DNA of 40,352 nucleotides from Bacteroidales bacterium (GTDB taxonomy: Bacteria > Bacteroidota > Bacteroidia > Bacteroidales > WCHB1-69). The notes under the pieces were generated by a model, which made no database searches, had not been told where the DNA came from, and was given only the letters and a program-made list of their open reading frames with translations. Of this stretch, positions 469 to 37,129 are shown in pieces. The translations under genes were made by a program, and so were the position numbers. Each line of letters begins with the position of its first letter. The stretch's first letter is position 1. The DNA lies in assembly GCA_017633495.1 (NCBI GenBank), contig JAGBPE010000128.1:1-40352 (forward strand), in the 5' to 3' direction.

Positions 469-1236
469 TTATTGTTGATCCGTGGGTTCTGCGTTTTTGC
501 GCTTTTTGGCGGAAATGATCCACTTGACCACCACATAGGCCACTCCGATGGCGAAGATGGCTAACAGAGCGATGGTGAGTTCGTGGTTGTATTTGTCGAT
601 CAGGTCTTTTTGTCCGTGCGCAACATAGCCGAGGATGGCCAGCACCGTGTTCCATGCGGCTGCACCGAGCGAGGTGAAGAGGATGAACATCCCGATGTGC
701 ATCTTGGCGAGACCGGCAGGAATGGAGATGAGCTGACGGATGGCGGGAATAAAGCGGCCCACCAGTGTGGAAACATTGCCGTGCTCGCGGAAATAGTCCT
801 CTGCCTTCTGCACTTTTGCGCTGTCGAGCAGCAACATGTGACCCACTTTGCTGTCGGCGAACCAATAGATGATAGGGCGTCCGAGCCAAAGGGCCAGCAC
901 GTAGTTGATGAGAGCTCCGATGAGGGCTCCGAGCGTGGCGAACAGAATGACTAACAGCACGTTAACGAAATTCGACGAAGTGACGTGCAAGGTTTCGTTG
1001 TCGCTATTGCATGCTTGATAGGCGGCGGGCGGCACAATCACCTCCGACGGGAACGGGATGAACGAGCTCTCGATGGTCATCAGCAGCGTCACCGTGCCGT
1101 AGTTCAGGTGCTCGTTGTACCAAGAGATCACGCGTCCAGTAGCGGACGTTTCGGGTTGTACTTCGGGATTATCGGTTTGAGCCGTACCCATAAAGGCGCA
1201 GGCCGCGATGATCAGGATGAGCAGGACTTTCTTCAT
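469..1236 (-). CDS. DedA family membrane protein
   Basis: 255 aa multi-pass hydrophobic protein carrying the DedA signature VGRFIPAIRQLISIPAGLAKM. The N-terminus looks like a signal peptide (MKKVLLILIIAACAFMGTAQ). Its stop codon lies 1 nt before the aroE ATG. Confidence 0.85.
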   Translation of the reverse strand: MKKVLLILIIAACAFMGTAQTDNPEVQPETSATGRVISWYNEHLNYGTVTLLMTIESSFIPFPSEVIVPPAAYQACNSDNETLHVTSSNFVNVLLVILFATLGALIGALINYVLALWLGRPIIYWFADSKVGHMLLLDSAKVQKAEDYFREHGNVSTLVGRFIPAIRQLISIPAGLAKMHIGMFILFTSLGAAAWNTVLAILGYVAHGQKDLIDKYNHELTIALLAIFAIGVAYVVVKWIISAKKRKNAEPTDQQ

Positions 1237-9080: not shown

Positions 9081-9089
9081 TAAAAAGTG

Positions 9090-9097
9090 TATATTTG
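9090..9097 (+). promoter_or_regulatory. -7 promoter box TATATTTG
   Basis: Matches TAnnTTTG 20 nt upstream of the ATG at 9117. Confidence 0.55.
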
Positions 9098-9116
9098 CCG
9101 CTTAAAGTTTAGTATT

Positions 9117-10191: not shown

Positions 10192-10791
10192 ATGGGCAAT
10201 CTGTTAGATCAAATCAAGAAGGATTTGCGTTATGAAGAGGCGCTCCATGCCTGCATGAACTGCGGCATGTGTACGGCTGTGTGTCCGGCGGCGGAGTTCT
10301 ATGACTACGACCCGCGCCGCATCTGCGACCTCGTGCAACGCAACGACGAGGCGGTCATCGAGGAGCTGCTGCGTTCCGAAACTATCTGGTATTGTGGACA
10401 ATGCATGTCGTGCAAACCCCGCTGTCCGCGTGGCAACGCTCCTGGCGAAATCATCAACGTACTGCGCAAAGTCTCCCAAGAGACCGGCTATTTCCGTGAC
10501 AGCGAGATGGGTCGTCAGCAAACGCAACTGATGAACTCCATCGAACAGAATATCCTCGATATCGGCTATTGCGTGCACCCCGACCGTGTGGATCCCGACT
10601 ATCACGTGGAGCAGGGACCCGTTTGGCGTTGGTTTGTGGACAACATCGAGGAAATTGCCCCGAAACTCGGCGCGAACTACCATGGCGATGGCCCCGGCGC
10701 CCTCCGCACCATCCCCCACGAGGACATGGCGGAAGTACATAAGATTTTCGAAGTCACCGGCGGCTTTGATCTTCGCGAGAAAGTGAAATAA
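10192..10791 (+). CDS. HdrC-like 2x[4Fe-4S] ferredoxin-domain protein
   Basis: 199 aa with two CxxCxxCxxxCP motifs (CMNCGMCTAVCP and CGQCMSCKPRCP). Its ATG lies 1 nt after the VOC stop (TGA-T-ATG). Confidence 0.7.
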   Translation: MGNLLDQIKKDLRYEEALHACMNCGMCTAVCPAAEFYDYDPRRICDLVQRNDEAVIEELLRSETIWYCGQCMSCKPRCPRGNAPGEIINVLRKVSQETGYFRDSEMGRQQTQLMNSIEQNILDIGYCVHPDRVDPDYHVEQGPVWRWFVDNIEEIAPKLGANYHGDGPGALRTIPHEDMAEVHKIFEVTGGFDLREKVK

Positions 10792-10828
10792 TTGATAATT
10801 GATAATTGAGAATTGAGAATTGAGAATG
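10790..10828. repeat. 7-bp tandem repeat (AATTGAT)x2 (AATTGAG)x3
   Basis: Read directly from the sequence. It begins inside the stop codon of the preceding gene. Confidence 0.9.
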
Positions 10829-10887: not shown

Positions 10888-11916
10888 ATGAGAAGAATAA
10901 TCATACTAATCAGTGCTATTTTTCTGCCATTGCTCATCATGGCGCAGGACCGCATCAATGTGACCGACAAAAACGGCAAGAAACAGGGCGTCTGGAAAAA
11001 ATACGAGCAAGGTAAGTTGCTGTACGAAGGGCAGTTCAAGGATGACGTACCCTACGGAACGTTCAAGTACTACTATACCGACGGCAAGCTGAAGAGTGTT
11101 ACCGAGTTTGTGCAAGGTGTGCATAAAGTGCATACGACCATGTATCACGAAAATGGGAAAAAAGCCTCTGAAGGTGCTTACATTGACCAGCAGAAAGACG
11201 GCGAGTGGCGCTACTATTCCAATCAGGATACCTTGATCAAGGTGGAAAACTACCAGGTAGGCAACCGACAAGGAATATGGCAAACCTATTCCACATCGGG
11301 AGTGCTGTTGGAGGAGACAAATTACTTGAACAACAAGCGCAACGGTCTATCCAAAGTCTATTATTTGAACGGTCAGGTGCAGTTGGAGGCGAATTATGTA
11401 GGCGGCAAGACCAATGGTAAGAGCACTTCCTATTATCCGAATGGAAAGATATCAATGACAGGTGATTACCACGATGGATGGCGCGACGGAGAGTGGAATG
11501 CATACGATGTGAACGGCAAAATCCGCTCCACAACGGTTTATAAAGACCAGCGACTGGTGAATACCTACATCTATATGTATCAAAAAGGGGTGGGACAGAA
11601 ACTAAAACAGGATATCGTGGCCTATTTTGTGAAAAACCGCGACAAAGTGACGGTCTATTTGAAAAACGGCAACAAGATTTCAATTGACGAAACATTCGAA
11701 GAGGTTGAGCAATGGATTGATTATACGGTGTTTACGAGGGTTAATCCGCGCTATATCGTCGCTATTGACGCCATTGTGAGTTATAAGCCTGTGGCGGATG
11801 CCGACGACGCTATCATTCTCAAAATCAACCCCGCTCCCGACGAGGAAATATATTCCGAAGGCAATGACGCCAAACTCCTCAAAGCGTTATTCAATCCGGA
11901 AAAACCCCAAGAATAA
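10888..11916 (+). CDS. secreted MORN-repeat (YwqK-like) protein with a LytTR-like C-terminal domain
   Basis: 342 aa with signal peptide MRRIIILISAIFLPLLIMAQ. About 8 MORN-variant repeats follow (GxWKxYxxxGKLxxEGxF...). The C-terminus, DIVAYFVKNRDKVTVYLKNGNKISIDETFEEVEQWI...FTRVNPRYIVAIDAI, follows the LytTR pattern. Confidence 0.65.
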   Translation: MRRIIILISAIFLPLLIMAQDRINVTDKNGKKQGVWKKYEQGKLLYEGQFKDDVPYGTFKYYYTDGKLKSVTEFVQGVHKVHTTMYHENGKKASEGAYIDQQKDGEWRYYSNQDTLIKVENYQVGNRQGIWQTYSTSGVLLEETNYLNNKRNGLSKVYYLNGQVQLEANYVGGKTNGKSTSYYPNGKISMTGDYHDGWRDGEWNAYDVNGKIRSTTVYKDQRLVNTYIYMYQKGVGQKLKQDIVAYFVKNRDKVTVYLKNGNKISIDETFEEVEQWIDYTVFTRVNPRYIVAIDAIVSYKPVADADDAIILKINPAPDEEIYSEGNDAKLLKALFNPEKPQE

Positions 11917-11923
11917 AAATATC

Positions 11924-12004
11924 ATTCCTTAAGCAGCCTCGAAGAGGCAAGACGCACGAAGTGCTAATAACCCCACATAAGCGACGTAGGTGCGCAATGT
12001 GGGG
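11924..12004 (+). repeat. structured intergenic repeat, copy A (full length, three hairpins)
   Basis: ATTCCTTAAGCAG, then hairpin GCCTC-GAA-GAGGC, hairpin GCAC-GAA-GTGC, and hairpin CCCCACAT...ATGTGGGG. It starts 7 nt after the upstream stop and ends 33 nt before the MATE ATG. Confidence 0.8.
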
Positions 12005-12037
12005 CCGAAAAAGAAACTAAGAACCATACTCTTATCA

Positions 12038-13327
12038 ATGAATCGCGAAATCCTCCGCATTTCTCTTCCAAGCATCATCACCAACATCACCGTGCCGCTA
12101 TTGGGCATGGTGGATGTGGCAATCGTGGGGCATATCGGTGATGCGACCTATATCGCGGCCATTGCGTTGGGGACGATGGTTTTCAATCTTATATACTGGA
12201 ATTTCGGTTTCCTGAGGGCAGGAACATCGGGTATGACAGCGCAGGCATATGGTGCGGAAGACAAGACGGAATATCTGAACGTTTTAGTGCGCGGCATTGC
12301 CATCGCATTGGCGGCGGCGCTGCTCATCATTCTGTTGCAGCGACCTGTCGGCTATCTCTGCAAGAAATGGATAGACAGCTCTTCCGAAACAATGGGATTG
12401 ATGCTGACCTACTTCTACATCCGCGTCTGGGCGGCCCCGGCCACCATCAGCATTTTCGTGTTGAAAGGCTGGTTTTTGGGAATGCAGAATGCCAGCTCCC
12501 CGATGTGGATTGCCACGCTGATGAATGTGGTGAACATCCTCTGTAGTCTGCTGTTCGTCTATGTGTTGCACGCCGACATTTCCGGTGTGGCGTGGGGCAC
12601 GGTGGCGGCGCAGTACAGCGGTCTGCTGTTAGCCATCACGATTTGGATTCGTCGTTACGGGTATCTCTGGAAGGATATCCGTTGGAAAACGGCTTTGCAG
12701 TTGCGCAAAATGGTTCGTTTCTTCAAGGTGAACGCTGATATTTTCCTCCGTTCGCTCTGTTTTATCGCGGTGTTTACCTTCATTCCGTACATTTCCGCCC
12801 ATTTCGGGGAGGAGATCCTGGCCGCCAACACTCTGCTGATGCAGCTCTTCACGCTCACTTCCTATGTGATGGACGGTTTCGCCTACGCCGGCGAGTCGCT
12901 CGTGGGCAAGTATGTGGGTGCGCAAGACAAGCTCCGTCTCCGTCTCACCATCCACTACCTGCTCTATTGGGGTGTCGGACTGGCGATCTTCTTCACGTTG
13001 CTGTTTATCTTTGCCGGAGAGCCGCTCTTGCGTGTCCTCTCCAGTGACGAAACAGTCATCCAGACCTCCCTGCAATACATGTTTTGGACCTATCTACTGC
13101 CTTTCACCGGTTTCGCGGCCTTCATCTACGACGGCATCTACATCGGTGCGACGGCTTCCGCTCCTATGCGCAACGTGATGTTCGTGGCCACGGCAGTCTT
13201 CTTCGTGGTTTACTATGCACTCGTCGGTCGCTGGGCCAACCACGCCATCTGGTGCGCTTTTATCTTCTTCCTGACGTTCCGTGGCGTGCTGATGGCGATG
13301 GGACAAAAGAGGTACATTCTTAGTTAG
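12038..13327 (+). CDS. MATE family efflux transporter (DinF-like)
   Basis: The start is moved from the GTG at 11990, which lies inside the repeat hairpin, to the ATG at 12038 (MNREILRISLPSIITNITVPLLGMVD). 429 aa with about 12 TM helices. Confidence 0.85.
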   Translation: MNREILRISLPSIITNITVPLLGMVDVAIVGHIGDATYIAAIALGTMVFNLIYWNFGFLRAGTSGMTAQAYGAEDKTEYLNVLVRGIAIALAAALLIILLQRPVGYLCKKWIDSSSETMGLMLTYFYIRVWAAPATISIFVLKGWFLGMQNASSPMWIATLMNVVNILCSLLFVYVLHADISGVAWGTVAAQYSGLLLAITIWIRRYGYLWKDIRWKTALQLRKMVRFFKVNADIFLRSLCFIAVFTFIPYISAHFGEEILAANTLLMQLFTLTSYVMDGFAYAGESLVGKYVGAQDKLRLRLTIHYLLYWGVGLAIFFTLLFIFAGEPLLRVLSSDETVIQTSLQYMFWTYLLPFTGFAAFIYDGIYIGATASAPMRNVMFVATAVFFVVYYALVGRWANHAIWCAFIFFLTFRGVLMAMGQKRYILS

Positions 13328-13351
13328 CAGTTAGTAGTTAGTAGTTAGCAG
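13320..13351. repeat. 7-bp tandem repeat TTAGCAG/TTAGTAG x4 overlapping the MATE stop codon
   Basis: Read directly from the sequence. An inverted 11-mer copy, CTAACTGCTAA, lies at 13365-13375. Confidence 0.9.
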
Positions 13352-13377
13352 TCAAAGCCAACACCTAACTGCTAAAG

Positions 13378-13405
13378 GCCAATAGCTAATAGCCAACAGC
13401 CAAAA
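13378..13405. repeat. degenerate 7-bp tandem repeat GCCAATA GCTAATA GCCAACA GCCAAAA
   Basis: Read directly from the sequence. The same GCYAAnn heptad family appears on the reverse strand at 14906-14933. Confidence 0.8.
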
Positions 13406-13443
13406 AAAAAGCGCCCGAGCATGATGTTCGGGCGTTTTCTTTA
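13402..13443. terminator. bidirectional intrinsic terminator between convergent MATE and mscL
   Basis: An A9 tract, then the stem CGCCCGA / TCGGGCG (13412-13418 / 13428-13434), then TTTTCTTT. Confidence 0.85.
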
Positions 13444-13461
13444 ACGGAATTGCGTGCCGGC

Positions 13462-13893
13462 TTATTTCTCCTTCAGCAAATCGCGGATTTCGGTGAGAAG
13501 CTTCTCTTCGGCGCTTGGCTCGGGAGCAGGTGCCGGAGCCTCTTCTTCCTGTTTCTTCACCAAGCTGGTGGCCTTGTTGATACCCTTCATCACGAGGAAG
13601 ATACACAATGCCACAATCAGGAAGTCGATCGTCACCTGGATGAAGTTGCCGTAGTTGAGGGTGACGGCCTCTTTCACAACTTCGCCAGCCTCGTTGAGCT
13701 TCGGGGTGCGGAGGGTCAGCGAGAGCGTCGTGAAGTTGACGTTGCCGATGAGCGCACCGACGAGCGGCATGAGAATGTCATTCACCAAAGAGGTGACGAT
13801 TTTACCGAAGGCACCGCCGATGATCACACCGATGGCCATGTCCATCACGTTGCCTTTCATTGCAAATTCCTTGAATTCTTTAAAAAATCCCAT
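13462..13893 (-). CDS. mscL: large-conductance mechanosensitive channel
   Basis: 143 aa starting [33 protein letters not shown], with two TM helices and a charged C-terminal helix. Confidence 0.95.
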
Positions 13894-13931
13894 AGCGTTA
13901 AAATTTTAATGATGTTTGAAAGTGCAAAAGT

Positions 13932-13972
13932 AAAAAAAAATACAGATTGTTGTGCTAATCTGTATTTTTTTT
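13932..13972. terminator. intrinsic terminator hairpin with flanking A9 and T8 tracts
   Basis: ATACAGATT-GTTGTGCT-AATCTGTAT, a 9-bp stem, immediately downstream of the glycosyltransferase stop at 13982. Confidence 0.85.
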
Positions 13973-13981
13973 CTTATTGAC

Positions 13982-14902
13982 TTATTCATCGGAATTCAGT
14001 AGGTTGTGCATCACCGAAAGCTTGTATAAATCCAAGAACATCAGGCTGTTATACGTAGATGCGATGTTTCTCAGCGGTTGCTTGATTTTTCCGAGCAGCG
14101 ATAGGGTGAATCGACCCGAAATCGTTCGTTTAAGCTTTTGGTAGGTGGCTAACAACGTGCTGACAGCCAAGAATTTGTCGTCTAATTTGTTGTGGGATTG
14201 CAGGTTGACAAGATTGGCGACACCCGCTGCCACTTTGTCCAAAAGCAGTTCGTTGGTGTCGATGCCTTCGTGATAGAGCTCATTGTCAATGTGATAGACG
14301 GGGATTCCGCATTTTTTGAGCTCAATGCCGAAGAAGGTATCTTCGTAGCCATATTGTTTCAAACTCTCTTCAAAACGACATTTCTCGAACACCGATTTGG
14401 CAATCAGCATGTTGAACGGGGTGAAAGCCCTGTAGGGATCGCGGTTCCGTTCATACGCCGGTCGCACCTCCCGTTTGATGCCGTAACGATAGCGCAGCAA
14501 TTTGGTCTTTTCGGGACGCATTTCACGATAGCTCAAACCTCCTAAAACCACAAAATCGGTTCCCTGGAGATTATTCTCTTGCAAAAAACGGATATAATTC
14601 GAGATATAGTCACTGCTTTTTACGCGAGCGTCGCAGTCCATGAAGAGCAGGGTTGGGTATTTCGCAGCATCCGCCAGACTGTTACGGATTTTGGAGCGAC
14701 CGATGTTCTGCTCATTTTGGATATACTGCACGTGATACTGCTCCGCCAATAGCGAATTGTGATAGCGCACCGACGTGTCCGACGATGCATCATCTGAGAT
14801 GATGATCTCGTACTCGATATTGCTCTCATTCAATTGCGCTTGTAATTCCGAAACTAGCGGATGCAGATTTGTATTATATGTTGGAATTAATATTGATAAC
14901 AT
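13982..14902 (-). CDS. family 2 (GT-A) glycosyltransferase
   Basis: 306 aa starting MLSILIPTYN, followed by IIISDDASSD and the DxD-type motif FMDCDA. Confidence 0.85.
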   Translation of the reverse strand: MLSILIPTYNTNLHPLVSELQAQLNESNIEYEIIISDDASSDTSVRYHNSLLAEQYHVQYIQNEQNIGRSKIRNSLADAAKYPTLLFMDCDARVKSSDYISNYIRFLQENNLQGTDFVVLGGLSYREMRPEKTKLLRYRYGIKREVRPAYERNRDPYRAFTPFNMLIAKSVFEKCRFEESLKQYGYEDTFFGIELKKCGIPVYHIDNELYHEGIDTNELLLDKVAAGVANLVNLQSHNKLDDKFLAVSTLLATYQKLKRTISGRFTLSLLGKIKQPLRNIASTYNSLMFLDLYKLSVMHNLLNSDE

Positions 14903-14905
14903 TTC

Positions 14906-14959
14906 ATTTGGCTTTTAGCTTTTGGCCGTTAGCCATTGGCTTGTGAAACCAATAGCTAA
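14906..14959. repeat. heptad repeats (reverse strand GCTAACG GCCAAAA GCTAAAA GCCAAAT) plus an 11-bp imperfect inverted repeat
   Basis: Heptads span 14906-14933. The hairpin TTAGCCATTGG (14929-14939) / CCAATAGCTAA (14949-14959) has one mismatch. The 12-mer CCAATAGCTAAT also occurs at 13379-13390. Confidence 0.7.
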
Positions 14960-14983
14960 TGCCATAGACAATTACCAATTAAC

Positions 14984-15030
14984 CCTTAAACTATAAACCT
15001 TAAACTATAAACCTTAAACCTCTTAAACTA
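14984..15030. repeat. 14-bp tandem repeat CCTTAAACTATAAA x2 plus two partial units
   Basis: Read directly from the sequence. The last partial unit contains the ftsE-like stop codon at 15023-15025. Confidence 0.9.
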
Positions 15031-15778
15031 AAGAATCAATCAACTTCCCGTCTTCGATGCAAATCGCTCTCGAAGGGAACTTGTCAATCATAGAAAAATT
15101 GTGGGTGGCCATCAGCACGGTGGTACCGGCTTGGTTGATGTGATGGAAAGTCTGGAAGATCTCCTCGGCGGTGATGGGGTCGAGGCTGCCGGTGGGCTCG
15201 TCGGCCAGAATCAGATCCGGACTGTTGAGCAGGGCGCGGGCGATGCAGACACGCTGCTGTTCGCCGCCCGATAGTTGTGACGGCAGTTTGAAATCTTTCG
15301 TCTCCAATCCGACCAAGGTAAGCACCTCTTCGCAGCGGTTGAGCATGAGGTTCTTGTCTTTCCATTGCGTGGCGCGAAGCACGAACATGAGGTTCTCGAT
15401 GACCGTTCGGTCTTGCAGTAGCTGGTAGTCCTGAAACACCATTCCGATTTTCTTGCGCAGTTCCGGAATCTGTTTGGTCTTGAGATTGAGCAGGTCGTAG
15501 CCGAGCATCATCGCCTCTTCGCCCTCGGGCTTGAGTTCAGCGATGAGGGTTTTGAGGATGGAGGATTTGCCCGAACCGGTTTTGCCGATCAGGTAAACAA
15601 ACTCCCCTTGTTTGATGGAGAAGCTGATGTCGGAGAGCACCAGCAGCTTCCGGTGGGCGATGTTCACGTGTTTGAACGAGATGACATCCGCGGGGATGGT
15701 CGTCTCCTGCGTGGGTTGTTCGTTCTCTGTCGTGGTGACTTCGGGCTCGTTGTTGATGATTGCTTCGGGTTCTTCCAT
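15023..15778 (-). CDS. ftsE: FtsE-like ABC ATPase (cell-division ATP-binding protein family)
   Basis: 251 aa with Walker [10 protein letters not shown], signature LSGGEQQR and Walker [14 protein letters not shown] 40-aa acidic N-terminal extension precedes the ATPase core. No permease or FtsX gene is adjacent. Confidence 0.7.
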
Positions 15779-15807
15779 GATGGTTCAATCTCGTATGAAA
15801 CGTTGTT

Positions 15808-15846
15808 CTACCAAGCTCTTGTCCCTGCCGGGACTGCTCAAGGAAT
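15808..15846 (-). repeat. structured intergenic repeat, copy E (5' module only)
   Basis: The reverse strand reads ATTCCTTGAGCA-GTCCC-GGCA-GGGAC-AAGAGCTTGGTAG. It ends 29 nt before the ftsE ATG. Confidence 0.7.
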
Positions 15847-15852
15847 AATATA

Positions 15853-15880
15853 ATTCTTAATTCTGCATTCTTAATTCTGA
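15853..15880. repeat. 14-bp tandem repeat ATTCTTAATTCTGC / ATTCTTAATTCTGA
   Basis: Read directly from the sequence. It lies between the gyrB stop and repeat copy E. Confidence 0.9.
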
Positions 15881-15886
15881 ATTGGA

Positions 15887-17923
<2,037 letters not shown>

Positions 17924-17952
17924 TTAGTGGTTTTTTAATGGTTGGGGGAGAA

Positions 17953-18001
17953 GGCAATAGGCAATAGGGAAAAGGCAATAGGATAGGGTTGAGGGTCGAG
18001 A
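17953..18001. repeat. purine-rich repeat with a 7-nt period (GGCAATA x3 interleaved with GGGAAAA, GGATAGG, GTTGAGG, GTCGAGA)
   Basis: Read directly from the sequence. It lies in the 404-bp divergent gyrB/lipoprotein spacer. Confidence 0.75.
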
Positions 18002-18258
18002 GAAGAGGGAAAGTGGCCGTTGGACATTTTGTAGGAGTAGGTCGCGTCGAATTTCTCGGTCGCGATGAACTGATGGGCGAAATTGATAGCAATAGAGCGT
18101 GATTATTTTTTGTACTTTTGCAGCCATAAATTCATGTCCTATGATGAGATGGTGCCACATCAGCGAATTCAATACCCTGTACGAGCAACCACGTGAATAC
18201 ATCAATGGCAAAAACGAACCAAGACTATAAAAATAGCAACAAATAATAAAGTAATATT

Positions 18259-19050
18259 ATGAAGAAAGTATTTTTAATGCTGGCCGTTGCGGCCACCATC
18301 CTCTGCGGATGCAACAAGGACAAGGACAATCTGTCAGACAAACTGATAGGCAAATGGATGCAGGCTGAAATAGATGGCTTGCCCGCGTTGACCAACGAAA
18401 AAACGGTTATCACCTTCATCTCCGACACAAAAGCTATCCTTAGCGCATCAAGAGCTGATTTCACACAGACGGAATCTAAATGGAACGCCTATTTGGAATG
18501 TGACGTCCAGATTGACGGCGACATTGTGACAGTCACTGGGCAAATCAACGAGTCCAAATCCATTGTTTACAAATACACTGTCAATTCTATTACTGACAAT
18601 GAGATGTCATGCCACTTCAAGGTGACTTCATACACGAATGGGAACGCATTCCACTATCCCGAGGAAGACGTTGTCCTGAAACGCGTCACTGTTGATTATA
18701 AAAACGACGTTGTTGGCATCTGGGAAGGCCGTATCACCAGCCAGGAAGGCTCCGAATTTGACGATGGCGAGCTCCACCGCTGGGAATACAAGGCTGACGG
18801 CACCTACATCTATTATCGCCAGACGGAAGAAGGTCAATGGGTGGACGACGTGAATGCCTTTGCCGAGTATTTCGTGGATGGCAACCTACTGTGCACACGC
18901 TGGCTGAACAATGGTGAGGGGCAGTTTGAGAACCGCGAATGGTGGGAGATTGCCTCCATCACGAACGGCGTGATGTCGTGGACGGCGCTGCGCAATCATG
19001 ATGACGGCACCACCTACACCGCTACTTTCAGCATGACAAAAGTGAACTAA
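18259..19050 (+). CDS. lipoprotein with two lipocalin-like modules
   Basis: 263 aa with a lipobox (ILCGC). Two similar halves begin LIGKWMQ and VVGIWEGR, as in the Bacteroidetes lipocalin-like domain. Confidence 0.6.
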   Translation: MKKVFLMLAVAATILCGCNKDKDNLSDKLIGKWMQAEIDGLPALTNEKTVITFISDTKAILSASRADFTQTESKWNAYLECDVQIDGDIVTVTGQINESKSIVYKYTVNSITDNEMSCHFKVTSYTNGNAFHYPEEDVVLKRVTVDYKNDVVGIWEGRITSQEGSEFDDGELHRWEYKADGTYIYYRQTEEGQWVDDVNAFAEYFVDGNLLCTRWLNNGEGQFENREWWEIASITNGVMSWTALRNHDDGTTYTATFSMTKVN

Positions 19051-19056
19051 CAGACA

Positions 19057-19082
19057 ACCTCGCATATATCCTATGCGAAGGT
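19057..19082 (+). terminator. possible terminator hairpin without a U tract
   Basis: ACCTCGCATA-TATCC-TATGCGAAGGT, 10 bp with one bulge, starting 6 nt after the lipoprotein stop. Confidence 0.35.
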
Positions 19083-19325
19083 CTCTGCCTGATTCCATCG
19101 CACGTTCACAAAAACAAACTACTAAGAAAAAAGGACGATAGAATCGGGTGCTTCCCACGTCATTCCTGCAAGAAAGTTTATTGGATGAAAGACTTCTCCT
19201 TAAATTTTTGCGGGAATGATTTTTTATTGTCCCCCTTTATCACATTCTCAACCTGAAATCCCATCCCGCCTGCCATTTTGTCAGTTCTTCCCCATTGGCA
19301 ACATAATTGCAATATTATGCGGCGT

Positions 19326-19361
19326 GTGCTCACTGAATATTCTGTGCTCACTGAATATTCT
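19326..19361. repeat. perfect 18-bp tandem repeat GTGCTCACTGAATATTCT x2
   Basis: Read directly from the sequence. Each unit carries the 8-bp palindrome GAATATTC (19335-19342 and 19353-19360). Confidence 0.9.
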
Positions 19362-19369
19362 GAAAATAT

Positions 19370-19444
19370 ATTCCTTGAGCAGCCTCGAAGAGGCAAGACG
19401 CACGCAGTGCAATTAACCCCACACAAGCGAAGCGCAGTGTGGGG
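19370..19444 (+). repeat. structured intergenic repeat, copy B (full length)
   Basis: ATTCCTTGAGCA-GCCTC-GAA-GAGGC-AAGAC-GCAC-GCA-GTGC-AATTAA-CCCCACAC-AAGCGAAGCGCA-GTGTGGGG. It ends 33 nt before the clpB ATG. Confidence 0.8.
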
Positions 19445-19448
19445 TCAA

Positions 19449-19470
19449 CCTAAACCTTAAACCTTAAACC
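19449..19470. repeat. 7-bp tandem repeat CCTAAA/CCTTAAA x3
   Basis: Read directly from the sequence. It lies between repeat copy B and the clpB start. Confidence 0.85.
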
Positions 19471-19477
19471 GAAAATT

Positions 19478-22075
<2,598 letters not shown>

Positions 22076-22080
22076 ATGAT

Positions 22081-22115
22081 AAAAAAAAGCGACGAAATTT
22101 CGTCGCTTTTTTTTT
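22081..22115. terminator. bidirectional intrinsic terminator between convergent clpB and the nitroreductase gene
   Basis: An A8 tract, the palindromic stem-loop GCGACGAAATTTCGTCGC (22089-22106), then a T9 tract. The nitroreductase stop codon lies in the T tract. Confidence 0.9.
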
Positions 22116-22752
22116 ATTCGATAATCAACTCTTTCCAACGCACTTTCGGGACGATATGCGTGCCGTTCTCTCGGTAGTACGCATGGCTTTCGTCTGCGGA
22201 AATCTCCTTCAGTTGGATGCACTCACCTCCTTTGCCGATGGCGAGGATGAGTACGGGCGGGTAGGGGAGCGCAAACTCTTCTTCGACTTTCTTTGCATTG
22301 AACGCCCCGATAATCAGACCGTTATAACCAAGCTCTACCGCTTTCAGCAACATGCTTTGTGCTGCGATGCCCACATCCACGTGCAGCATTTTATTGTCGG
22401 GAACGGTGCTGCAGATGATGATGAAGGCTTTGGGCTCGGTGCCTGGAAACGGCAAGTGCAGTTCCGGCAGCATACCGCCCAACTTGATGTTTTCCAACAC
22501 CTTTTCCGCACCAGTCTCTTCCGTGACCAGCTTGAACCGCAATGCTTGCTGGTTCTTCGCTGACGGCAACAAAGGATTCACCGCCACGATTTTCTCCAGC
22601 GTGCTTTTCGAAACTTTATAGGCTTGATCGTATCCGCGGTAACTGCGGTTTGCCTTCAACAGTTGATCCAGCGAATGCCCCGCGGATTTGTACACCACCT
22701 TTTTCTTGCTGTTGTATTCGTCGAATTTGTTCTCTATGTAATTGTCGGCCAT
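22114..22752 (-). CDS. nitroreductase family protein
   Basis: 212 aa. N-terminal RSYRGYD..., PSAKNQQALRF and a C-terminal ...LILAIGKG fit the FMN nitroreductase fold pattern. Confidence 0.7.
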   Translation of the reverse strand: MADNYIENKFDEYNSKKKVVYKSAGHSLDQLLKANRSYRGYDQAYKVSKSTLEKIVAVNPLLPSAKNQQALRFKLVTEETGAEKVLENIKLGGMLPELHLPFPGTEPKAFIIICSTVPDNKMLHVDVGIAAQSMLLKAVELGYNGLIIGAFNAKKVEEEFALPYPPVLILAIGKGGECIQLKEISADESHAYYRENGTHIVPKVRWKELIIE

Positions 22753-22775
22753 TATTTCGTCATTTGTTTTGCAAT

Positions 22776-22841
22776 CCAGGGGTTGCGCTTCGCTTACCCC
22801 TGGCTACCGAGCTCTTGCCCCTACGGGGCTGCTTAAGGAAA
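22776..22841 (-). repeat. structured intergenic repeat, copy D (variant with flipped distal stem)
   Basis: The reverse strand reads TTTCCTTAAGCA-GCCCC-GTA-GGGGC-AAGAGCTCGGTAG-CCAGGGGT-AAGCGAAGCGCA-ACCCCTGG. It starts 7 nt after the upstream stop and ends 23 nt before the nitroreductase ATG. Confidence 0.75.
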
Positions 22842-22848
22842 GTTTTTA

Positions 22849-24144
22849 TTACAGGCTCCAATACGTCATGTTCTTCACCACGTTACGATACAGACCCTTA
22901 ACGTCAACGAAGATGCCATTGCCAAGGGAATATTGCTGGAAATACTCTTCCGAGAGCCCTTTGTATTCGTTGTGGGCGACGGCGAGGATGATGGCGTTGT
23001 AGGGACCTTCGGGCTGCGACTTCAGTTCGAGGTTGTAGCATTTCTTGACCTCTTCGGGGTTGGCGAACGGATCGACCACGTCCACGATGACACCGAAATC
23101 CTGCAGCTCGTGGATGATGTCCACCACTTTGGAGTTGCGGATGTCGGAGACGTTCTCTTTGAAGGTGATGCCCATCACGAGTACGCGTGCGTTCATAGCC
23201 GGTTTGCCGGAAGCGATGATCTTCTTGACCACGTTCTTGGCGATGTAGCCGCCCATGGAGTCGTTGACGAAACGACCGGCGGAGATGACCTGTGTGTGAT
23301 ATTTTAGTTCAGCCGCCTTGTGCACGAGGTAGTAGGGGTCCACGCCGATGCAGTGGCCGCCAACCAGACCGGGGAAGAACTTCATGAAGTTCCATTTTGT
23401 GCCGGCCGCCTCCAACACGTCGTAGGTGTTGATGCCCATTCTGCCGAACAGGATCGACAGCTCGTTCATCAGGGCGATGTTGACGTCGCGTTGGGTGTTC
23501 TCGATGATCTTGGCAGCTTCGGCCACTTTGACGCTCGGGGCGCGGTGCACACCGGGTTGCACGACCATTTCGTAGATTTTCGCAATCTGTTCCAAGGATT
23601 CGTCATCGCAACCGGAGACGATCTTGACGGTCTTTTCCAACGTGTGTACCTTTTCGCCAGGATTGATACGCTCAGGCGAATAGCCGAACTTGAAATCGAC
23701 GCCTGCCTTTAATCCGGAAAGCTGCTCCAAAACCGGAACGCAGTCCTCTTCGGTGCAACCGGGGTAGACGGTGGACTCATAGACCACGTAGTCGCCCTTT
23801 TTCAGCACTTTGCCGACAGATTTGGTGGCTCCGAGCAGCGGAACCAGGTCGGGTTTGTTGTTCTTGTCGATGGGCGTCGGCACTGCCACGATGTAGAAGG
23901 TGGCTTTGGCCAATTCGTCCAAGGAGGAGGTAAACAGGATGTCTGCATTCTCGAACACGCTGTCGTCCAACTCTTTGCACGGGTCTGTACCTGAACGCAT
24001 CACGTTGAGATGATCCTCGTTGATGTCGAAACCGATGACAGAGGCTTTGTGAGCGAAAGCCATCGCCAGAGGAAGTCCGACATAACCCAAACCGATCACG
24101 CCGATTTTGGCATTTTTGCTTAAAATTTCATCGTATATGGCCAT
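22849..24144 (-). CDS. NDP-sugar 6-dehydrogenase of the UDP-glucose/GDP-mannose dehydrogenase family (TviB/WbpO/UDP-HexNAc dehydrogenase-like)
   Basis: 431 aa with an N-terminal Rossmann motif (KIGVIGLGYVGLPLAMAF) and the catalytic-Cys block LVGGHCIGVDPYYL. Confidence 0.85.
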   Translation of the reverse strand: MAIYDEILSKNAKIGVIGLGYVGLPLAMAFAHKASVIGFDINEDHLNVMRSGTDPCKELDDSVFENADILFTSSLDELAKATFYIVAVPTPIDKNNKPDLVPLLGATKSVGKVLKKGDYVVYESTVYPGCTEEDCVPVLEQLSGLKAGVDFKFGYSPERINPGEKVHTLEKTVKIVSGCDDESLEQIAKIYEMVVQPGVHRAPSVKVAEAAKIIENTQRDVNIALMNELSILFGRMGINTYDVLEAAGTKWNFMKFFPGLVGGHCIGVDPYYLVHKAAELKYHTQVISAGRFVNDSMGGYIAKNVVKKIIASGKPAMNARVLVMGITFKENVSDIRNSKVVDIIHELQDFGVIVDVVDPFANPEEVKKCYNLELKSQPEGPYNAIILAVAHNEYKGLSEEYFQQYSLGNGIFVDVKGLYRNVVKNMTYWSL

Positions 24145-24165
24145 ATTGTTGTTGATTTTCGTCTG

Positions 24166-25914: not shown

Positions 25915-25935
25915 CACACGGTAAAAAAGAAGTTG

Positions 25936-26637
25936 TTATTCTTCGCCACCGCCGCCAAGCATCTTTTTCAGATCCTCGGGAGCATCTTCGAAGTCCTTCG
26001 CGTCAGAGGGAAGGAGGAAGTCAGTGGCTTTCACCTTCTTGTTGGGGGTGATTTTGGTAGCGGTGCTGATCACCGTGAACTCTTCGCCGTTATATTCTTT
26101 CTTTGATTCGGTGCAGAGCGGATAGCCCTTCAGACCAGGGTATGAAGCAAAGTTGATATCGTCGCCAAGACCGAGTTCTGTGGTCACCCAAAGAATCTCC
26201 GTATCTTCTTCATCAGTCTCCAAGTTGGTGATTTTCACGATCACTTTCTTGCAATTGTAGCCTGTGATGTTTTTCGTTTCGTCCGTGTACTCAAAATCTC
26301 TCTTGATGTTGGCAGTAGCCTCTTGGAGTTTTTCAAGAGTGGCTTTGTTATAATATTTGCCATAGCCAGGGATGTCAAAAATGGTGGTGAGGGTCTTTGA
26401 GTTGCCATTTGAAATGATGATCACATCAATACCCATGTTCATGTTAATACGCCAGTTGTTGCCCATAACGATAAACTCTTGGGTCTCTTCAGCAAGCTGG
26501 GAAACGAAATTCGGGTCGCTGCAATCCGGGGAAGTGGATTCAAAAGTGATGTTGCCAGCGAAAGGTTTCTGTGCGAAAGCACTGACACTGAGGATCATCA
26601 CGGCGACGATCATAAAAAAGCGGGTCATTTTTTTCAT
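25936..26637 (-). CDS. secreted protein of unknown function (possibly DUF4412-like)
   Basis: 233 aa with signal peptide MKKMTRFFMIVAVMILSVSAFAQ, a beta-rich body and a C-terminal GGGGEE tail. Confidence 0.5.
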   Translation of the reverse strand: MKKMTRFFMIVAVMILSVSAFAQKPFAGNITFESTSPDCSDPNFVSQLAEETQEFIVMGNNWRINMNMGIDVIIISNGNSKTLTTIFDIPGYGKYYNKATLEKLQEATANIKRDFEYTDETKNITGYNCKKVIVKITNLETDEEDTEILWVTTELGLGDDINFASYPGLKGYPLCTESKKEYNGEEFTVISTATKITPNKKVKATDFLLPSDAKDFEDAPEDLKKMLGGGGEE

Positions 26638-26685
26638 TTTTTCTTAAGTATTTTTGGTTATAATAATCCAACTTAATTCAGACGG

Positions 26686-26693
26686 CAAAGATA
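26686..26693 (-). promoter_or_regulatory. -7 promoter box TATCTTTG
   Basis: The reverse strand reads TATCTTTG, 49 nt upstream of the ATG at 26637. Confidence 0.55.
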
Positions 26694-26723
26694 TAAAATT
26701 TACTGAAAAGTTTAATGAAAAAA

Positions 26724-26738
26724 AACATTGTCAATGTT
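26724..26738. promoter_or_regulatory. 15-bp palindrome AACATTG-T-CAATGTT, candidate operator
   Basis: A perfect 7-bp inverted repeat in the divergent spacer, between the two -7 boxes. Confidence 0.35.
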
Positions 26739-26761
26739 GCGGGCTGTTTGCAAAGATTTTT

Positions 26762-26769
26762 TATTTTTG
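26762..26769 (+). promoter_or_regulatory. -7 promoter box TATTTTTG
   Basis: Matches TAnnTTTG 26 nt upstream of the ATG at 26795. Confidence 0.55.
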
Positions 26770-26794
26770 CTTTTTCATTTTAAAAGTTAAGATA

Positions 26795-27478: not shown

Positions 27479-27480
27479 TC

Positions 27481-28641: not shown

Positions 28642-28649
28642 CCGCTAAA

Positions 28650-29108: not shown

Positions 29109-29122
29109 CAAATTTTGATTTG

Positions 29123-29130
29123 CAAAAATA
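29123..29130 (-). promoter_or_regulatory. -7 promoter box TATTTTTG
   Basis: The reverse strand reads TATTTTTG, 15-21 nt upstream of the candidate yqeY-like ATGs. This implies a very short leader. Confidence 0.4.
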
Positions 29131-29156
29131 TCTTTTTTTCGTGTTCGTCGGACAAT

Positions 29157-30545: not shown

Positions 30546-30562
30546 TTTATCTGTTTTTACCG

Positions 30563-30643
30563 CCCCACATTACGCTCCTGCGTCGCTTGTATGGGGTTAA
30601 TTGCACTTCGTGCGTCTTGCCTCTCCGAGGCTGCTCAAGGAAT
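30563..30643 (-). repeat. structured intergenic repeat, copy C (full length)
   Basis: The reverse strand reads ATTCCTTGAGCA-GCCTC-GGA-GAGGC-AAGAC-GCAC-GAA-GTGC-AATTAA-CCCCATAC...ATGTGGGG. It ends 17 nt before the xseA ATG. Confidence 0.8.
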
Positions 30644-30645
30644 AT

Positions 30646-30700
30646 CATCTCCTCATCTTTTCATCTTTTCATCTTTTCATCTCAAGTCTCAAGTCTCAAA
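30646..30700. repeat. 8-bp tandem repeat CATCTTTT x3 (plus one degenerate unit) followed by the 7-bp repeat CTCAAGT x2.5
   Basis: Read directly from the sequence at 30646-30677 and 30681-30700, between the yqgE-like stop and repeat copy C. Confidence 0.9.
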
Positions 30701-30703
30701 TCA

Positions 30704-37103: not shown

Positions 37104-37129
37104 TTTAATACAATATTAATATAAAGCGG

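Follow-up and report, generated by a model that had tools for sequence, protein, structure and literature searches.

Uncultured Bacteroidales of the rumen and gut carry a previously uncatalogued family of structured intergenic repeats. Five copies lie in the window, i.e., the whole 40,352-nucleotide stretch of Bacteroidales DNA analyzed here. We interpret the element as a polar form of the REP/BIME/BOX-like mosaic repeats that is active, or tolerated, at the level of sense RNA, a function that we infer. Given its strict one-directionality, the element is probably read and folded as RNA. The best explanation seems to be a modular intergenic repeat that punctuates sense RNA, and we give this explanation a probability of about 45%.

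Results

Copies in the window

The original prediction reported five copies, and their coordinates, sequences, stems, and distances were all as claimed (Table 1); none is expected by chance. The exact 12-mer TTCCTTRAGCAG occurs in the window at five sites, 11925(+), 19371(+), 30642(-), 22840(-), and 15845(-). The longer pattern TTCCTTRAGCAGN{11,13}CAAGAN{1,2}CWYG matches the same five sites, against 0.00 matches expected from 100 shuffles. A covariance model built on 40 full-length copies and run with filters off found in the window exactly these five copies and nothing further above noise.

All five copies are in the sense orientation between co-directional genes, which were assigned by Pfam. 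Copy A lies between a LytTR-domain gene (stop codon at 11914-11916) and a MatE gene (ATG at 12038), copy B in a 427-nt region between a hypothetical gene and clpB (ATG at 19478), and copy C between an AlgH-like gene and xseA (ATG at 30545). Copy D lies between genes for UDP-glucose dehydrogenase and a nitroreductase (ATG at 22752), and copy E between gyrB and an FtsE-type ABC ATPase gene (ATG at 15778). According to the ORF table, the 3' ends of copies A-E are 33, 33, 17, 23, and 29 nt from the downstream ATG, and the elements begin 7, 319, 60, 7, and 40 nt after the upstream stop codon. The ORF call of the MatE gene runs into H3 of copy A. No tRNA or tmRNA was found.

The predicted RNA folds of the window copies include three hairpins, with z-scores of -4.3 (A), -3.6 (B), -1.8 (C), -2.1 (D), and -0.7 (E). 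The core of H3 is GCGAAGC in copy B, and H3 of copy C has a U.G wobble in the CCCCATAC/GTAATGTGGGG region. Copy D consists of the leader, H1 (GCCCC-GTA-GGGGC), AAGA, GCTCGGTAG, and a GTAG-tagged hairpin of the H3-II version (CCAGGGG-TAAGCGAAGCGCAA-CCCCTGG). Copy E consists of the leader, H1 (GTCCC-GGCA-GGGAC), and AAGAGCTTGGTAG, without H3.

Table 1. Coordinates of the element copies, their parts, adjacent tandem arrays, and one Rfam match in another locus
Feature	Position	Strand	Details
Copy A, full-length type I	11917..12004	+	covariance model 100.4 bits
Copy A, 5' edge	11917-11924	+	A/T-rich
Copy A, leader	11925-11935	+	TTCCTTAAGCA
Copy A, H1	11936-11948	+	GCCTC-GAA-GAGGC, then linker AAGAC
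Copy A, H2	11954-11964	+	GCAC-GAA-GTGC, then linker TAATAA
Copy A, H3	11971-12004	+	CCCCACAT...ATGTGGGG, inner mini-hairpin within
Copy E, short form	15808..15853	-	covariance model 34.7 bits
Heptamer array, gyrB stop to copy E	15851..15883	-	sense AGAATTA/CAGAATTAAGAATG
18-nt unit directly 5' of copy B	19325..19362	+	GTGCTCACTGAATATTCT x2
Copy B, full-length type I	19363..19444	+	covariance model 104.8 bits
Heptamer array, copy B to clpB ATG	19447..19470	+	TAAACCT x3
Copy D, type II	22776..22848	-	covariance model 51.8 bits
Copy C, full-length type I	30563..30650	-	covariance model 94.3 bits
Short tandem repeats directly 5' of copy C	30645..30699	-	sense GAGACTT x3, GATGAAAA x4-5
Second RF01687 match, in L167	6410-6462

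Family size and organization of the unit

The covariance-model search detected 137 copies among rumen and gut Bacteroidales contigs totaling 0.73 Mb, and a metagenome pattern scan found at least about 105 true copies. A true copy is also present in L055, a Bacteroidales rumen MAG. Two matches in viral contigs were both due to chance and had no hairpin.

The unit consists of an A/T-rich edge, an unpaired 12-nt leader (TTCCTT-R-AGCA-G), and the hairpins H1 (13-15 nt), H2, and H3 (28-45 nt), with loops of the G-N(1-2)-A type. H2 and H3 exist in alternative versions, and short copies have no H3. Units occur together with tandem repeats of 7-8 nt and, optionally, a multi-hairpin module upstream; where units are reiterated (L121, L140, L164, L186, L230, and L241), all are head to tail. 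The leader sequence is conserved far above any stem. It is invariant across species in which the orthologous proteins are only 75-80% identical.

GGTAG directly adjoins the H3-II stem in 26-30 of the 68 type II copies. In type I copies the foot of H3 is AAWTAA, without a GTAG or CGTC tag. The same genomes are also rich in canonical double-foot GTAG REPs, one of which is nested inside an element. The genes inspected between the double-foot REPs are unrelated and include no RAYT-like ORF.

Stem pairing and covariation

A structured repeat family with true stem covariation was originally proposed from the five copies, and this holds on far more sequences. All three stems covary. Standard pairs fill 98.2% of 1149 pair cells, versus 26-69% when the 3' partners are slid, and the observed covariation score was reached by none of 500 shuffles. 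H1 occurs in four perfect stem haplotypes among 114 copies, and its loops start with G and end with A in about 107 of them; the tetraloops GTTA, GATA, GGCA, and GACA are not GNRA. The pairs of H2 are AU 45 times, GC 13 times, and UA 5 times, and the closing pair of H3 is CG 37 times, UA 19 times, and UG 9 times. Copy E and its ortholog in L136 differ by a compensatory change in H1, and the ortholog, unlike copy E, has an H3. Pairing of the leader with the AAGA linker (CUU/AAG) was rejected, since the variants AAAA, AACA, and TTCATT show no compensation.

The sense strand has 30 G.U versus 15 A.C cells, a ratio of only 2:1 from copies that are not independent; in H1 the numbers are 7 and 2. Under RNA parameters, the sense strand folds hardly better than the antisense strand (-27.4 vs -26.9 kcal/mol, p = 0.07), so that the polarity cannot be put down to hairpin stability alone. 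Under DNA parameters, the sense strand folds more stably in 61 of 66 copies. The GCGAAGC core and the G-N-A triloops with a C-G closing pair are typical of stable DNA mini-hairpins and not of RNA.

Orientation and position among genes

Between co-directional genes, 78 copies are sense and seven are antisense (binomial p = 3e-16), and 37 copies found outside the search-pattern selection show an equal sense bias. The strong strand bias expected from the five copies was thus confirmed. The stricter statement that the element is always sense-oriented is true of full-length copies (65 sense, 0 antisense) and fails for the short E-type copies (13 sense, seven antisense, i.e., 7/20). Strict polarity is confined to copies that contain H3. 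In the window, the strands of the copies (+, -, +, -, -) track gene orientation through three switches within 40 kb. Since orientation follows the genes at each strand switch, a replication-strand mechanism of the IS200/IS605 kind is excluded.

Over about 80 copies, the median distance between the 3' end and the ATG is 33 nt, with a lower limit of about 14 nt; this free stretch is A-rich and typically 17-45 nt long. The distance from the upstream stop codon has a median of 38 nt and is at most 1 nt in a quarter of the copies, and the stop codon is often the leader's own TGA/TAA or is supplied by the A/T-rich 5' edge. Seven copies lie in convergent spacers and have no downstream start. The element fills the stop-to-start spacer rather than being placed from the ATG. 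The supposed anchoring to the start codon, drawn from five cases, is only partly true: the gap to the stop codon is as short, and convergent copies have no start.

The copies checked lie outside genes, as anticipated, with one exception, a copy in frame within a peptidase U32 gene (L137/L215). It was the one examined among eight matches within ORFs of a rough gene caller, and its location in a real gene was confirmed.

Gain, loss, and exchange between strains

Close strains have acquired, lost, or exchanged the element as a cassette. Empty orthologous spacers in relatives are 4-11 nt long, some of them inside operons, and the mosaic enlarges such spacers to 100-200 nt. The site of copy A is empty in the orthologous spacer of L201. 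In L178 a spacer is 4 nt (TAAGATTATG), and L164 has an element there. Copy D is absent from L151 (97-99% protein identity), which has 8-mer repeats instead, and in strain L241 it is accompanied by an additional 67-nt module. The same gene can have the element in one strain and none, or an antisense short copy, in the next. Such differences occur between flanks that are 97-100% identical; L137 and L227 have different cassettes between flanks that are 100% identical. Orthologous copies can also be nearly or fully preserved: the ortholog of copy B in L151 differs by one loop change and one more TAAACCT unit, and that of copy E in L207 shows no difference between the leader and the start of the ORF, with flanking coding DNA that differs by 8-13%.

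The empty sites in close relatives imply that no particular gene needs its copy. The element is not a fixed leader of particular genes, since orthologous sites in relatives are empty or have another cassette. No target-site duplication was found in five compared pairs (four filled vs empty, and L137/L227 with different cassettes), in each of which the entire stop-to-start spacer differs. There are no terminal inverted repeats, as the 5' end (the A/T edge and TTCCTTRAGCAG) is not complementary to the 3' RTGTGGGG or CCCCTGG. The original proposal would have been contradicted by random orientation, by target-site duplications as in a plain MITE, or by a lack of covariation, and none of these was observed.

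The tandem repeats 5' of copy C belong to the same mosaic spacer, and repeat units of these types also occur upstream of copies in many loci. The array at copy E is replaced by AATGCTG x4 in L207. The TAAACCT array at copy B differs in unit number among strains, with four units in L151, and the 18-nt unit GTGCTCACTGAATATTCT is single in strain L241.

Transcription context and comparison with databases

Only two of 76 co-directional cases have a strict TAnnTTTG promoter motif between the element and the gene preceding it. In three divergent cases TAnnTTTG occurs 52-58 nt upstream of the element. A promoter inside the element was rejected: the unit contains no TAnnTTTG or TTTG, and sigma-70-type matches are uninformative for this phylum. 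A T tract follows H3 in none of the copies. A terminator scan of positions 11000-30999, which cover copies A, B, D, and E and H3 of copy C, called none of these as a terminator on either strand. A small ORF starting at the RTG of H3 (ATG/GTG TGG GG...) is present in copies A-C and missing in type II copies, and this candidate was also discarded.

The original prediction had recognized no named RNA family, and Rfam 15 agrees: it gave no matches in the window at gathering thresholds and none around copies A and D at E <= 10. RF01687 (Acido-Lenti-1) had two borderline matches in L167, with 39.2 and 37.2 bits (gathering score 37). In one of them (2304-2358), an H3-II-like hairpin, CCCAGGG...CCCTGGG, precedes a hairpin that resembles a terminator. 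The match excludes the leader, H1, and H2, and no window copy is matched, copies A and D not even at E = 10. The identity with RF01687 was therefore rejected, and the match is probably a chance likeness of G+C-rich hairpins. In about 1 Mb of loci no ORF with HUH/Y1 motifs of a RAYT was found, which is uninformative. Literature searches found no described Prevotella or Bacteroidales repeat of this kind.

Discussion

Possible function and competing explanations

Under the preferred explanation, the element would be co-transcribed in 5' UTRs and intercistronic regions, and the folding molecule would be the sense RNA. We infer co-transcription because most copies have neither room for nor a match to a promoter, and the divergent cases have a Bacteroidetes-type promoter upstream. 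The stem-loop block would then most likely be punctuation in polycistronic mRNA, as is established for REP/BIME and BOX-type repeats. The stem-loops could shield the upstream cistron from 3'-exonucleases. If the transcript were cut in the conserved, single-stranded A/U-rich leader, the downstream cistron would have a 5' end protected by structure, followed by an A-rich stretch of at least 14 nt left free for initiation. A protein probably recognizes the invariant leader, be it a nuclease, an RNA-binding protein, or a DNA-level spreading enzyme. Candidates for the spread of copies are recombination or gene conversion between them and a single-strand-DNA HUH enzyme.

A somewhat unlikely alternative is that the element is a selfish REP-like DNA repeat with no host RNA role, whose single-stranded DNA hairpins are spread by RAYT or another HUH enzyme or by ectopic recombination. 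Its polarity would result from the purging of harmful antisense full-length insertions. For example, the reverse complement sets H3 directly before UUAAUU/UUAUUA, which resembles a weak terminator; however, the antisense form does not pass the terminator scan. The cassette swaps and presence/absence differences between nearly identical flanks, the in-frame copy in the peptidase gene, the DNA mini-hairpin chemistry of the loops with the better DNA folding of the sense strand, the GTAG tag at the foot of H3 in 26-30 of 68 type II copies, the double-foot GTAG REPs of the same genomes, and the limitation of strict polarity to copies with H3 are all consistent with a selfish repeat. RAYT subclasses 2.4 and 2.6 are found in Bacteroidetes, the latter with "atypical secondary structures" (PMC6006769). 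On the other hand, orientation tracks the genes through the strand switches of the window, and the units run head to tail, in contrast to the inverted dimers that predominate among REPs (PMC3733652). The invariance of the leader between diverged proteins and the identity of the L207 ortholog amid diverged coding DNA exceed the conservation expected of resident selfish copies, although recombination could also give it. The uninformative search for RAYT-like ORFs lends the selfish repeat no support.

It is doubtful that the element is a dedicated cis-regulatory leader. In that case the leader and H1 would dock a global RNA-binding protein or nuclease, or form a standby or landing site for ribosomes that work without Shine-Dalgarno pairing. 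The carrier genes would be a post-transcriptional regulon, with the flanking forward heptamer arrays as part of the signal. Conservation of the leader far beyond any stem, the free A-rich stretch before the ATG, and the strict polarity argue for such a role, and heptamer arrays have been proposed as sites of the S1, Csp, or Csr type in Beggiatoaceae, cyanobacteria, and some Bacteroidetes (PMC4679880). However, the downstream genes have unrelated housekeeping roles and share no theme, and across strains the same gene occurs with the element, without it, or with an antisense short copy. Copies in convergent spacers and inside a gene also speak against a dedicated leader, and no candidate binding protein is known.

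A broader version of the preferred explanation is rather improbable. The heptamer arrays, the multi-hairpin module, and the unit might together form one polar mRNA punctuation system, in which a specific nuclease or RNA-binding protein would cut or mark polycistronic transcripts at the leader and thereby set downstream decay and translation, and cassette swaps would tune expression. Such tuning between strains would be exemplified by L137 and L227.

A transcription terminator or attenuator separating neighboring genes, also among the initial proposals, is very improbable: stable G+C-rich hairpins do directly follow stop codons, but no U tract follows H3, the terminator scan calls none, and the element lies inside operons with gene gaps of 4-11 nt in relatives and downstream of promoters, in 5' UTRs.

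Comparison with known repeats

Among the candidates originally listed, a REP-like element fits best. REP/BIME elements, known from Enterobacteria and Pseudomonas and comprising the GTAG and CGTC superfamilies, are transcribed with operons and act as barriers to mRNA decay. They are G+C-rich, imperfect palindromes of 20-40 nt that occur many times over, in the spacers between genes, and combine into mosaics in which a few hairpin types are joined by constant linkers; the element described here shares these features. It also shares subfamilies that differ by complementary stem changes and G.T pairs, the tendency to adjoin or supply stop codons, and occasional intragenic copies; a GTAG tag adjoins H3 in part of the type II copies. 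REPs are likewise known to be transcribed, to contain G.T pairs, and to supply stop codons (Di Nocera et al. 2013, PMC3733652); GTAG REPs were unreported in Bacteroidetes in that 2013 survey. In contrast to REP/BIME, full-length copies here are strictly sense, the units are head to tail and not inverted dimers, each unit has three different hairpins behind an unpaired, invariant leader of 12 nt, type I copies lack GTAG/CGTC tags, and no RAYT gene has been linked.

BOX elements of Streptococcus pneumoniae, boxA-boxB(n)-boxC, are modular, with variable internal modules, and lie in intergenic regions near gene starts. They form a stable RNA structure and are reported to modulate the expression of neighboring genes. 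Our element is similar in its modularity, its position close to gene starts, and its stable RNA fold. It differs in its unrelated sequence and in phylum, and the boxA/boxC ends are partly inverted repeats. We know of no strict polarity of this kind in BOX elements.

Mycobacterial MIRUs are repeats of 40-100 nt, often tandem, that lie in operon spacers and all point the same way with respect to transcription, in which they resemble the element. However, the small ORFs in MIRUs overlap the stop and start codons on either side (translational coupling), and MIRUs are not hairpin-based. Our element has stops in the leader (TRA: TGA/TAA) and in the H2-H3 linker (TAA), and at least 14 nt of untranslated sequence separate it from the ATG.

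The flanking arrays, and only these, resemble the forward heptamer arrays (TAACTGA) upstream of start codons in some Bacteroidetes, including Paludibacter of the Bacteroidales (MacGregor 2015, PMC4679880). Both are intergenic and forward, have stops in all three frames, and differ between strains by 7-nt indels. The units here, however, are AGTTAGY, GGCAAYA, GAATTRA, GGTTTAR, GAGACTT, and others, not TAACTGA.

Implications

Bacteroidales are dominant in the rumen and gut. To our knowledge, they have no Hfq, ProQ, or CsrA and do not use Shine-Dalgarno pairing, so the balance of expression within their operons is largely unexplained. The repeat is missing from Rfam and from the repeat catalogues searched. 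It breaks metagenome assemblies and misleads gene callers, as in the extension of the MatE ORF into H3. The density in the window, one copy per 8 kb, would correspond to a few hundred copies per genome if it is typical, and the carriers include housekeeping spacers and 5' UTRs such as those of gyrB>ftsE-type ATPase, clpB, and xseA. For a REP-like repeat such strict polarity is unusual, and it makes the choice between RNA and DNA directly testable. If the element has any effect at the RNA level, it would be a genome-wide source of expression variation.

Copies in the window and in related genomes

Exact matching of the leader TTCCTTRAGCAG returned five occurrences in the window, which coincide in coordinates, strand and sequence with copies A to E of the original prediction; the ORF table also bears out the distances to flanking stop and start codons that it had given. 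A longer core pattern matches the same five sites, compared with 0.00 expected in shuffles, and a covariance-model search with filters off found A to E and nothing further in 40 kb. This is one copy per 8 kb, with approximately one in six spacers occupied. According to Pfam, the genes flanking the five copies are housekeeping genes unrelated to one another (see the table). The repeat misleads start-codon calls, as at MatE: the longest ORF begins at a GTG within H3 of copy A, and in related contigs the product is called as 442 aa instead of 429 aa.

The core pattern was first checked on the window and then run on metagenome contigs, where it matched at least 120 loci. Among these listed matches, approximately 105 loci have a copy whose H1 stem is intact; the other matches are chance ones in coding DNA from other phyla. 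The covariance model (R1) was built from 40 full-length copies and detected 137 copies in 0.73 Mb of these loci. The 37 of them that do not fit the search pattern therefore serve as an independent sample. A true copy is present in a rumen Bacteroidales MAG (L055), and the locus of the window recurs on NCBI contig JAZOAN010000014.1 and in several gut and rumen assemblies. No true copies were found in 2.9 million viral contigs.

Coordinates of the repeat copies and associated features (window positions unless an L-number is given; L-numbers denote loci on other contigs)
Feature	Position	Strand	Context
Copy A	11924-12004	+	LytTR>MatE
Copy B	19370-19444	+	hypothetical>ClpB
Copy C	30643-30563	-	AlgH-like>XseA
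Copy D	22841-22776	-	UDP-glucose dehydrogenase>nitroreductase
Copy E	15846-15808	-	GyrB>FtsE-type ABC ATPase
GTG of longest MatE ORF	11990		within H3 of copy A (region 11990-12037)
Segment with copy D	22753-22848		replaced by 8-mer repeats in L151
7-nt (sometimes 8-nt) arrays	10790-10827, 13322-13403, 14907-15021, 15851-15883, 17952-17982, 19447-19470, 30645-30699		in spacers
Double-foot REP	27891-27918		inside the 27481-28641 ORF call
Double-foot REP	38360-38387		spacer before gene starting 38341, just 3' of promoter-like T-rich/TTTTTTGC stretch
22-nt inverted repeat AAAAAGTGTATATTTGCCGCTT	9082-9103	+	
22-nt inverted repeat AAAAAGTGTATATTTGCCGCTT	37124-37145	-	
Spacer of 8-mer repeats	L151 1590-1633		site of copy D
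5' UTR cassette	L137 ~850-1000	-	GGCAATA heptamers, sense full-length type I copy
5' UTR cassette	L227 ~1000-1150	+	antisense short type II copy, GTTCAAA heptamers
In-gene short copy	L137 10023-10089	+	peptidase U32/DUF3656 gene
In-gene short copy	L215 4154-4216	-	peptidase U32/DUF3656 gene
Double-foot REP in place of H2	L210 3782-3882		within an element
Double-foot REP (example)	L241 10767		
Borderline RF01687 matches	L167 2304-2358, 6410-6462	+	39.2 and 37.2 bits

Anatomy of the unit

With the copies aligned on the leader, conservation ends about 16 nt 5' of it. The 5' edge is A/T-rich at -16 to -8, carries AAA at -7 to -5 in about 80% of copies, and is followed by the leader consensus TTCCTT-R-AGCA. 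The first hairpin, H1, has the form G-YCYC, loop, GRGR-C. Its stem occurs in four perfectly complementary versions (59, 22, 19 and 2 copies), and its loop has G first and A last in approximately 107 of 114 copies (GAA, GGA, GTA, GTTA, GATA, GGCA and others). The linker AAGA leads to the second hairpin, which is either H2a (C-GCAC-GAA-GTGC, 41 copies) or H2b (GCTC-GGTA-GAGC, 71 copies, mostly shortened to GCTYGGTAG). In type I copies the linker AAWTAA precedes H3 (CCCCACAY...RTGTGGGG); H3 of type II (CCAGGGG...CCCCTGG) lies immediately 3' of GGTAG. Both H3 types surround a variable inner mini-hairpin, e.g., GCGAAGC, GGCGATAGCC or GCGACGAAGTCGC.

The modules are combined in several ways. Hybrids of H2b with H3 of type I occur in L121 and L204, two or three units stand head to tail in L121, L140, L164, L186 and L230, short copies such as E lack H3, and copy D has an additional 67-nt module in strain L241.

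Covariation and the folded strand

RNA folding reproduced the three hairpins of the original prediction, with z-scores for the window copies from -4.3 (A) to -0.7 (truncated E). The covariation claimed for the stems holds on 68 full-length copies, in which standard pairs make up 98.2% of 1149 pair cells, compared with 26-69% when the 3' partners are slid by 1-3 columns. None of 500 shuffles matched the observed covariation score or number of double changes, and a MAFFT alignment agrees. Five pairs have changes on both sides: in H1, columns 21-32 (CG 44, UA 23) and 23-30 (UA 38, CG 30); in H2, columns 41-76 (AU 45, GC 13, UA 5); in H3, columns 93-132 (CG 37, UA 19, UG 9) and 87-138 (few changes); these are not independent events because the copies are paralogues. 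The four versions of H1 assort freely with the H2 and H3 types. A compensatory H1 change is also seen between orthologous copies, GTCCC/GGGAC in copy E and GCCCC/GGGGC in L136.

G.U cells outnumber A.C cells, 30 to 15 overall and 7 to 2 in H1, a weak indication that folding takes place on the sense strand. Under RNA parameters the two strands hardly differ in folding energy (-27.4 kcal/mol for sense and -26.9 kcal/mol for antisense, p = 0.07); DNA parameters favor sense in 61 of 66 copies. The predicted energies do not discriminate between folding as RNA and as DNA. C-GNA-G loops, GCGAAGC and non-GNRA tetraloops are classic stable DNA mini-hairpins, and the description of GCGAAGC as a very stable one in the original prediction was a correct lead.

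Orientation and placement

Genes in the loci were called with a simple longest-ORF caller, which reproduces the genes of the window. Between co-directional genes, 78 copies lie in sense and seven in antisense (binomial p = 3e-16); another 12 lie between divergent and seven between convergent genes. Of the background gene pairs, 74% are co-directional, 12% divergent and 14% convergent. Copies with H3 are strictly polar (65:0) and short ones weakly so (13:7; Fisher p = 7e-5), so that the sense orientation originally predicted for every copy is retained for the former only. Within the window, orientation tracks gene direction across three strand switches, which excludes a replication-strand rule.

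The 3' end of the element lies a median of 33 nt from the ATG (interquartile range 18-70, floor about 14 nt). The gap from the upstream stop has a median of 38 nt and is at most 1 nt in a quarter of cases. Leader positions 6-8 are TGA or TAA in every copy; five upstream ORFs end on this codon, and for approximately 18 others the end lies within the 8 A/T-rich nt immediately before the leader. Since the gaps are equally short on both sides and stop codons lie in the leader and edge, the element occupies the spacer as a whole and is not placed at a set distance from the ATG; the proposed anchoring to the start codon was borne out only in part.

Transcription context

Of 76 co-directional cases, only two have the strict Bacteroidetes -7 motif TAnnTTTG in the stretch from the upstream gene to the element; in the stretch from the element to the next gene it occurs in only nine of 91, mostly with long gaps. 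Three divergent cases have it 52-58 nt 5' of the element, which would place the element there within the 5' UTR. The orthologous spacers measure 4 nt in L178 (TAAGATTATG), 9 nt in L205 and 11 nt in L158, and L164, L157 and L167 carry a mosaic of 117-167 nt at these sites. Since spacers of 4-11 nt in relatives mark positions inside operons, the insert is presumably read through. There is no T tract 3' of H3, and a terminator scan of window positions 11000-30999, which cover copies A, B, D and E and H3 of copy C, called no copy on either strand. The 22-nt inverted repeat of the window holds TAnnTTTG followed by CCGC; the form TAnnTTTGC(C/G)GC is also found upstream of elements in L124, L137, L159 and L231.

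Turnover between strains

In L201 the orthologous LytTR-MatE spacer lacks copy A (proteins 75-92% identical), and L151 lacks copy D (proteins 97-99% identical). In L151 the spacer consists of the 8-mer repeats GCCTCTAA GCCTGTAA GCGCGTAA GCGTGTAA ACCAATAA, starting with the upstream gene's own final 8 nt, stop codon included, which gives the impression of a reiterated stop-codon region. Several sites are occupied by a type I copy in one genome and by a type II or short copy in another. L137 and L227 have 100% identical flanks, including promoter and ORF, and different 5' UTR cassettes, exchanged just 3' of the promoter/TSS region and just 5' of the ATG. The whole-cassette swap also involves L218. 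Between the window and L207 there is complete identity from the leader of copy E to nt 55 of the ORF, while flanking coding DNA differs by 8-13% and the heptamers upstream of the copy differ; between the window and L136 the heptamers are common and the element differs. The pattern is that of a recombination mosaic whose breakpoints fall at module edges. Terminal inverted repeats and target duplications were not seen at the compared sites.

One short copy (CCCCAATAT..AAAC, leader, H1 and linker) lies in frame within a gene. It falls in an inter-domain linker (amino acids ~336-358, EPQYSKTSSLSSPGRGKKLGG) and the orthologue retains it, with 79% nucleotide identity.

Associated repeats

At many loci, arrays of 7-8-nt units lie directly 3' of the upstream stop or promoter and again 5' of the ATG. 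They resemble the forward heptamer repeats described by MacGregor (PMC4679880). The window has such arrays as well, with the units AATTGAG, AGTTAGC, AGCCAAC, GGTTTAA, AGAATTA, AGGCAAT, TAAACCT, GATGAAAA and GAGACTT in gene direction. Most units contain a stop codon, so all three frames are stopped. Across many metagenome loci the unit types recur, invariably in forward orientation, with copy numbers that differ between strains.

Some loci have an optional multi-hairpin module of about 75 nt upstream of the leader, ACGGGCRACCCCAATT-CCCCTTCT(NNN)AGAAGGGG-T-GCCCGAAGGGC-GGGGTAGTAATATAAAAC, with two hairpins within ACCCC/GGGGT and usually with AGTTAGY heptamers 5' of it (L157, L158, L209, L213, L216, L220, L236 with two copies, L140, L125, L174 and L194); a short form is GACGAAAAGCCCCAATATATTAAAC. 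The module is absent from the window and has no match in Rfam.

The same genomes contain a canonical second REP family, perfect "double-foot" GTAG palindromes GTAGAGACG-(palindromic centre)-CGTCTCTAC, with 34 copies in approximately 1 Mb (L121-L241) and two in the window. They match the REP type of RAYT subclass 2.4 described in PMC6006769, and their presence makes the studied element something additional. Two borderline matches to Rfam Acido-Lenti-1 (RF01687, gathering score 37) were found in L167; the first comprises an H3-II-like hairpin and then a terminator-like one, with TTGACYN heptamers 5'.

Discussion

The element is a new and abundant intergenic repeat, modular and under structural constraint, whose orientation is polar relative to transcription and which turns over fast. 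No description of the leader-H1-H2-H3 unit was found in the literature searched. Tried as a MITE, for IS200/IS605 orientation, as a terminator, as a MIRU and against Rfam, it belonged to none of these. It probably works like REP/BIME and BOX elements, and shares with REPs palindromes, mosaic build, complementary stem subfamilies, G.T pairs, stop-codon supply and intragenic copies (PMC3733652); 26-30 of 68 type II copies also have a GTAG foot. Unlike REPs, its units are arranged head to tail and not as inverted dimers, and type I copies have no tag. The structured, covarying, polar and REP-like character was seen correctly in the original prediction; its start-codon anchoring is supported only in part, and its uniform sense orientation only for full-length copies.

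We infer that the unit is read through within mRNAs and that the sense RNA is what selection sees. By analogy, we tentatively favor (probability roughly 0.45) a REP/BIME-type mRNA mechanism adapted to asymmetry, with an exonuclease barrier upstream and a protective 5' end downstream. The stem-loop block would be the barrier that protects the upstream cistron; after an endonucleolytic cut within the single-stranded A/U-rich leader, it would become the protective structured 5' end of the downstream cistron, and the A-rich unstructured initiation region would always stay free.

The main rival explanation, that the repeat is purely selfish at the level of single-stranded DNA and merely tolerated in sense, seems to us somewhat less likely. 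It would require the antisense long form, with H3 followed by UUAAUU, to be harmful; strict polarity only in copies with H3 agrees with this, but the antisense long form falls below the criterion of the terminator scan. As in REPs, the mRNA mechanism and selfish spread could operate side by side. A dedicated leader of the regulon type is improbable, the presence and absence of copies between strains being hard to square with it. A terminator can practically be dismissed, as anatomy and operon-internal sites contradict it.

We regard the element as a Bacteroidales relative of REP/BIME/BOX repeats that is polar, has a leader and is arranged head to tail; it is not a new principle. It is widespread and uncatalogued, lies at a blind spot in how Bacteroidales express their genes, and has an unusual and testable polarity.
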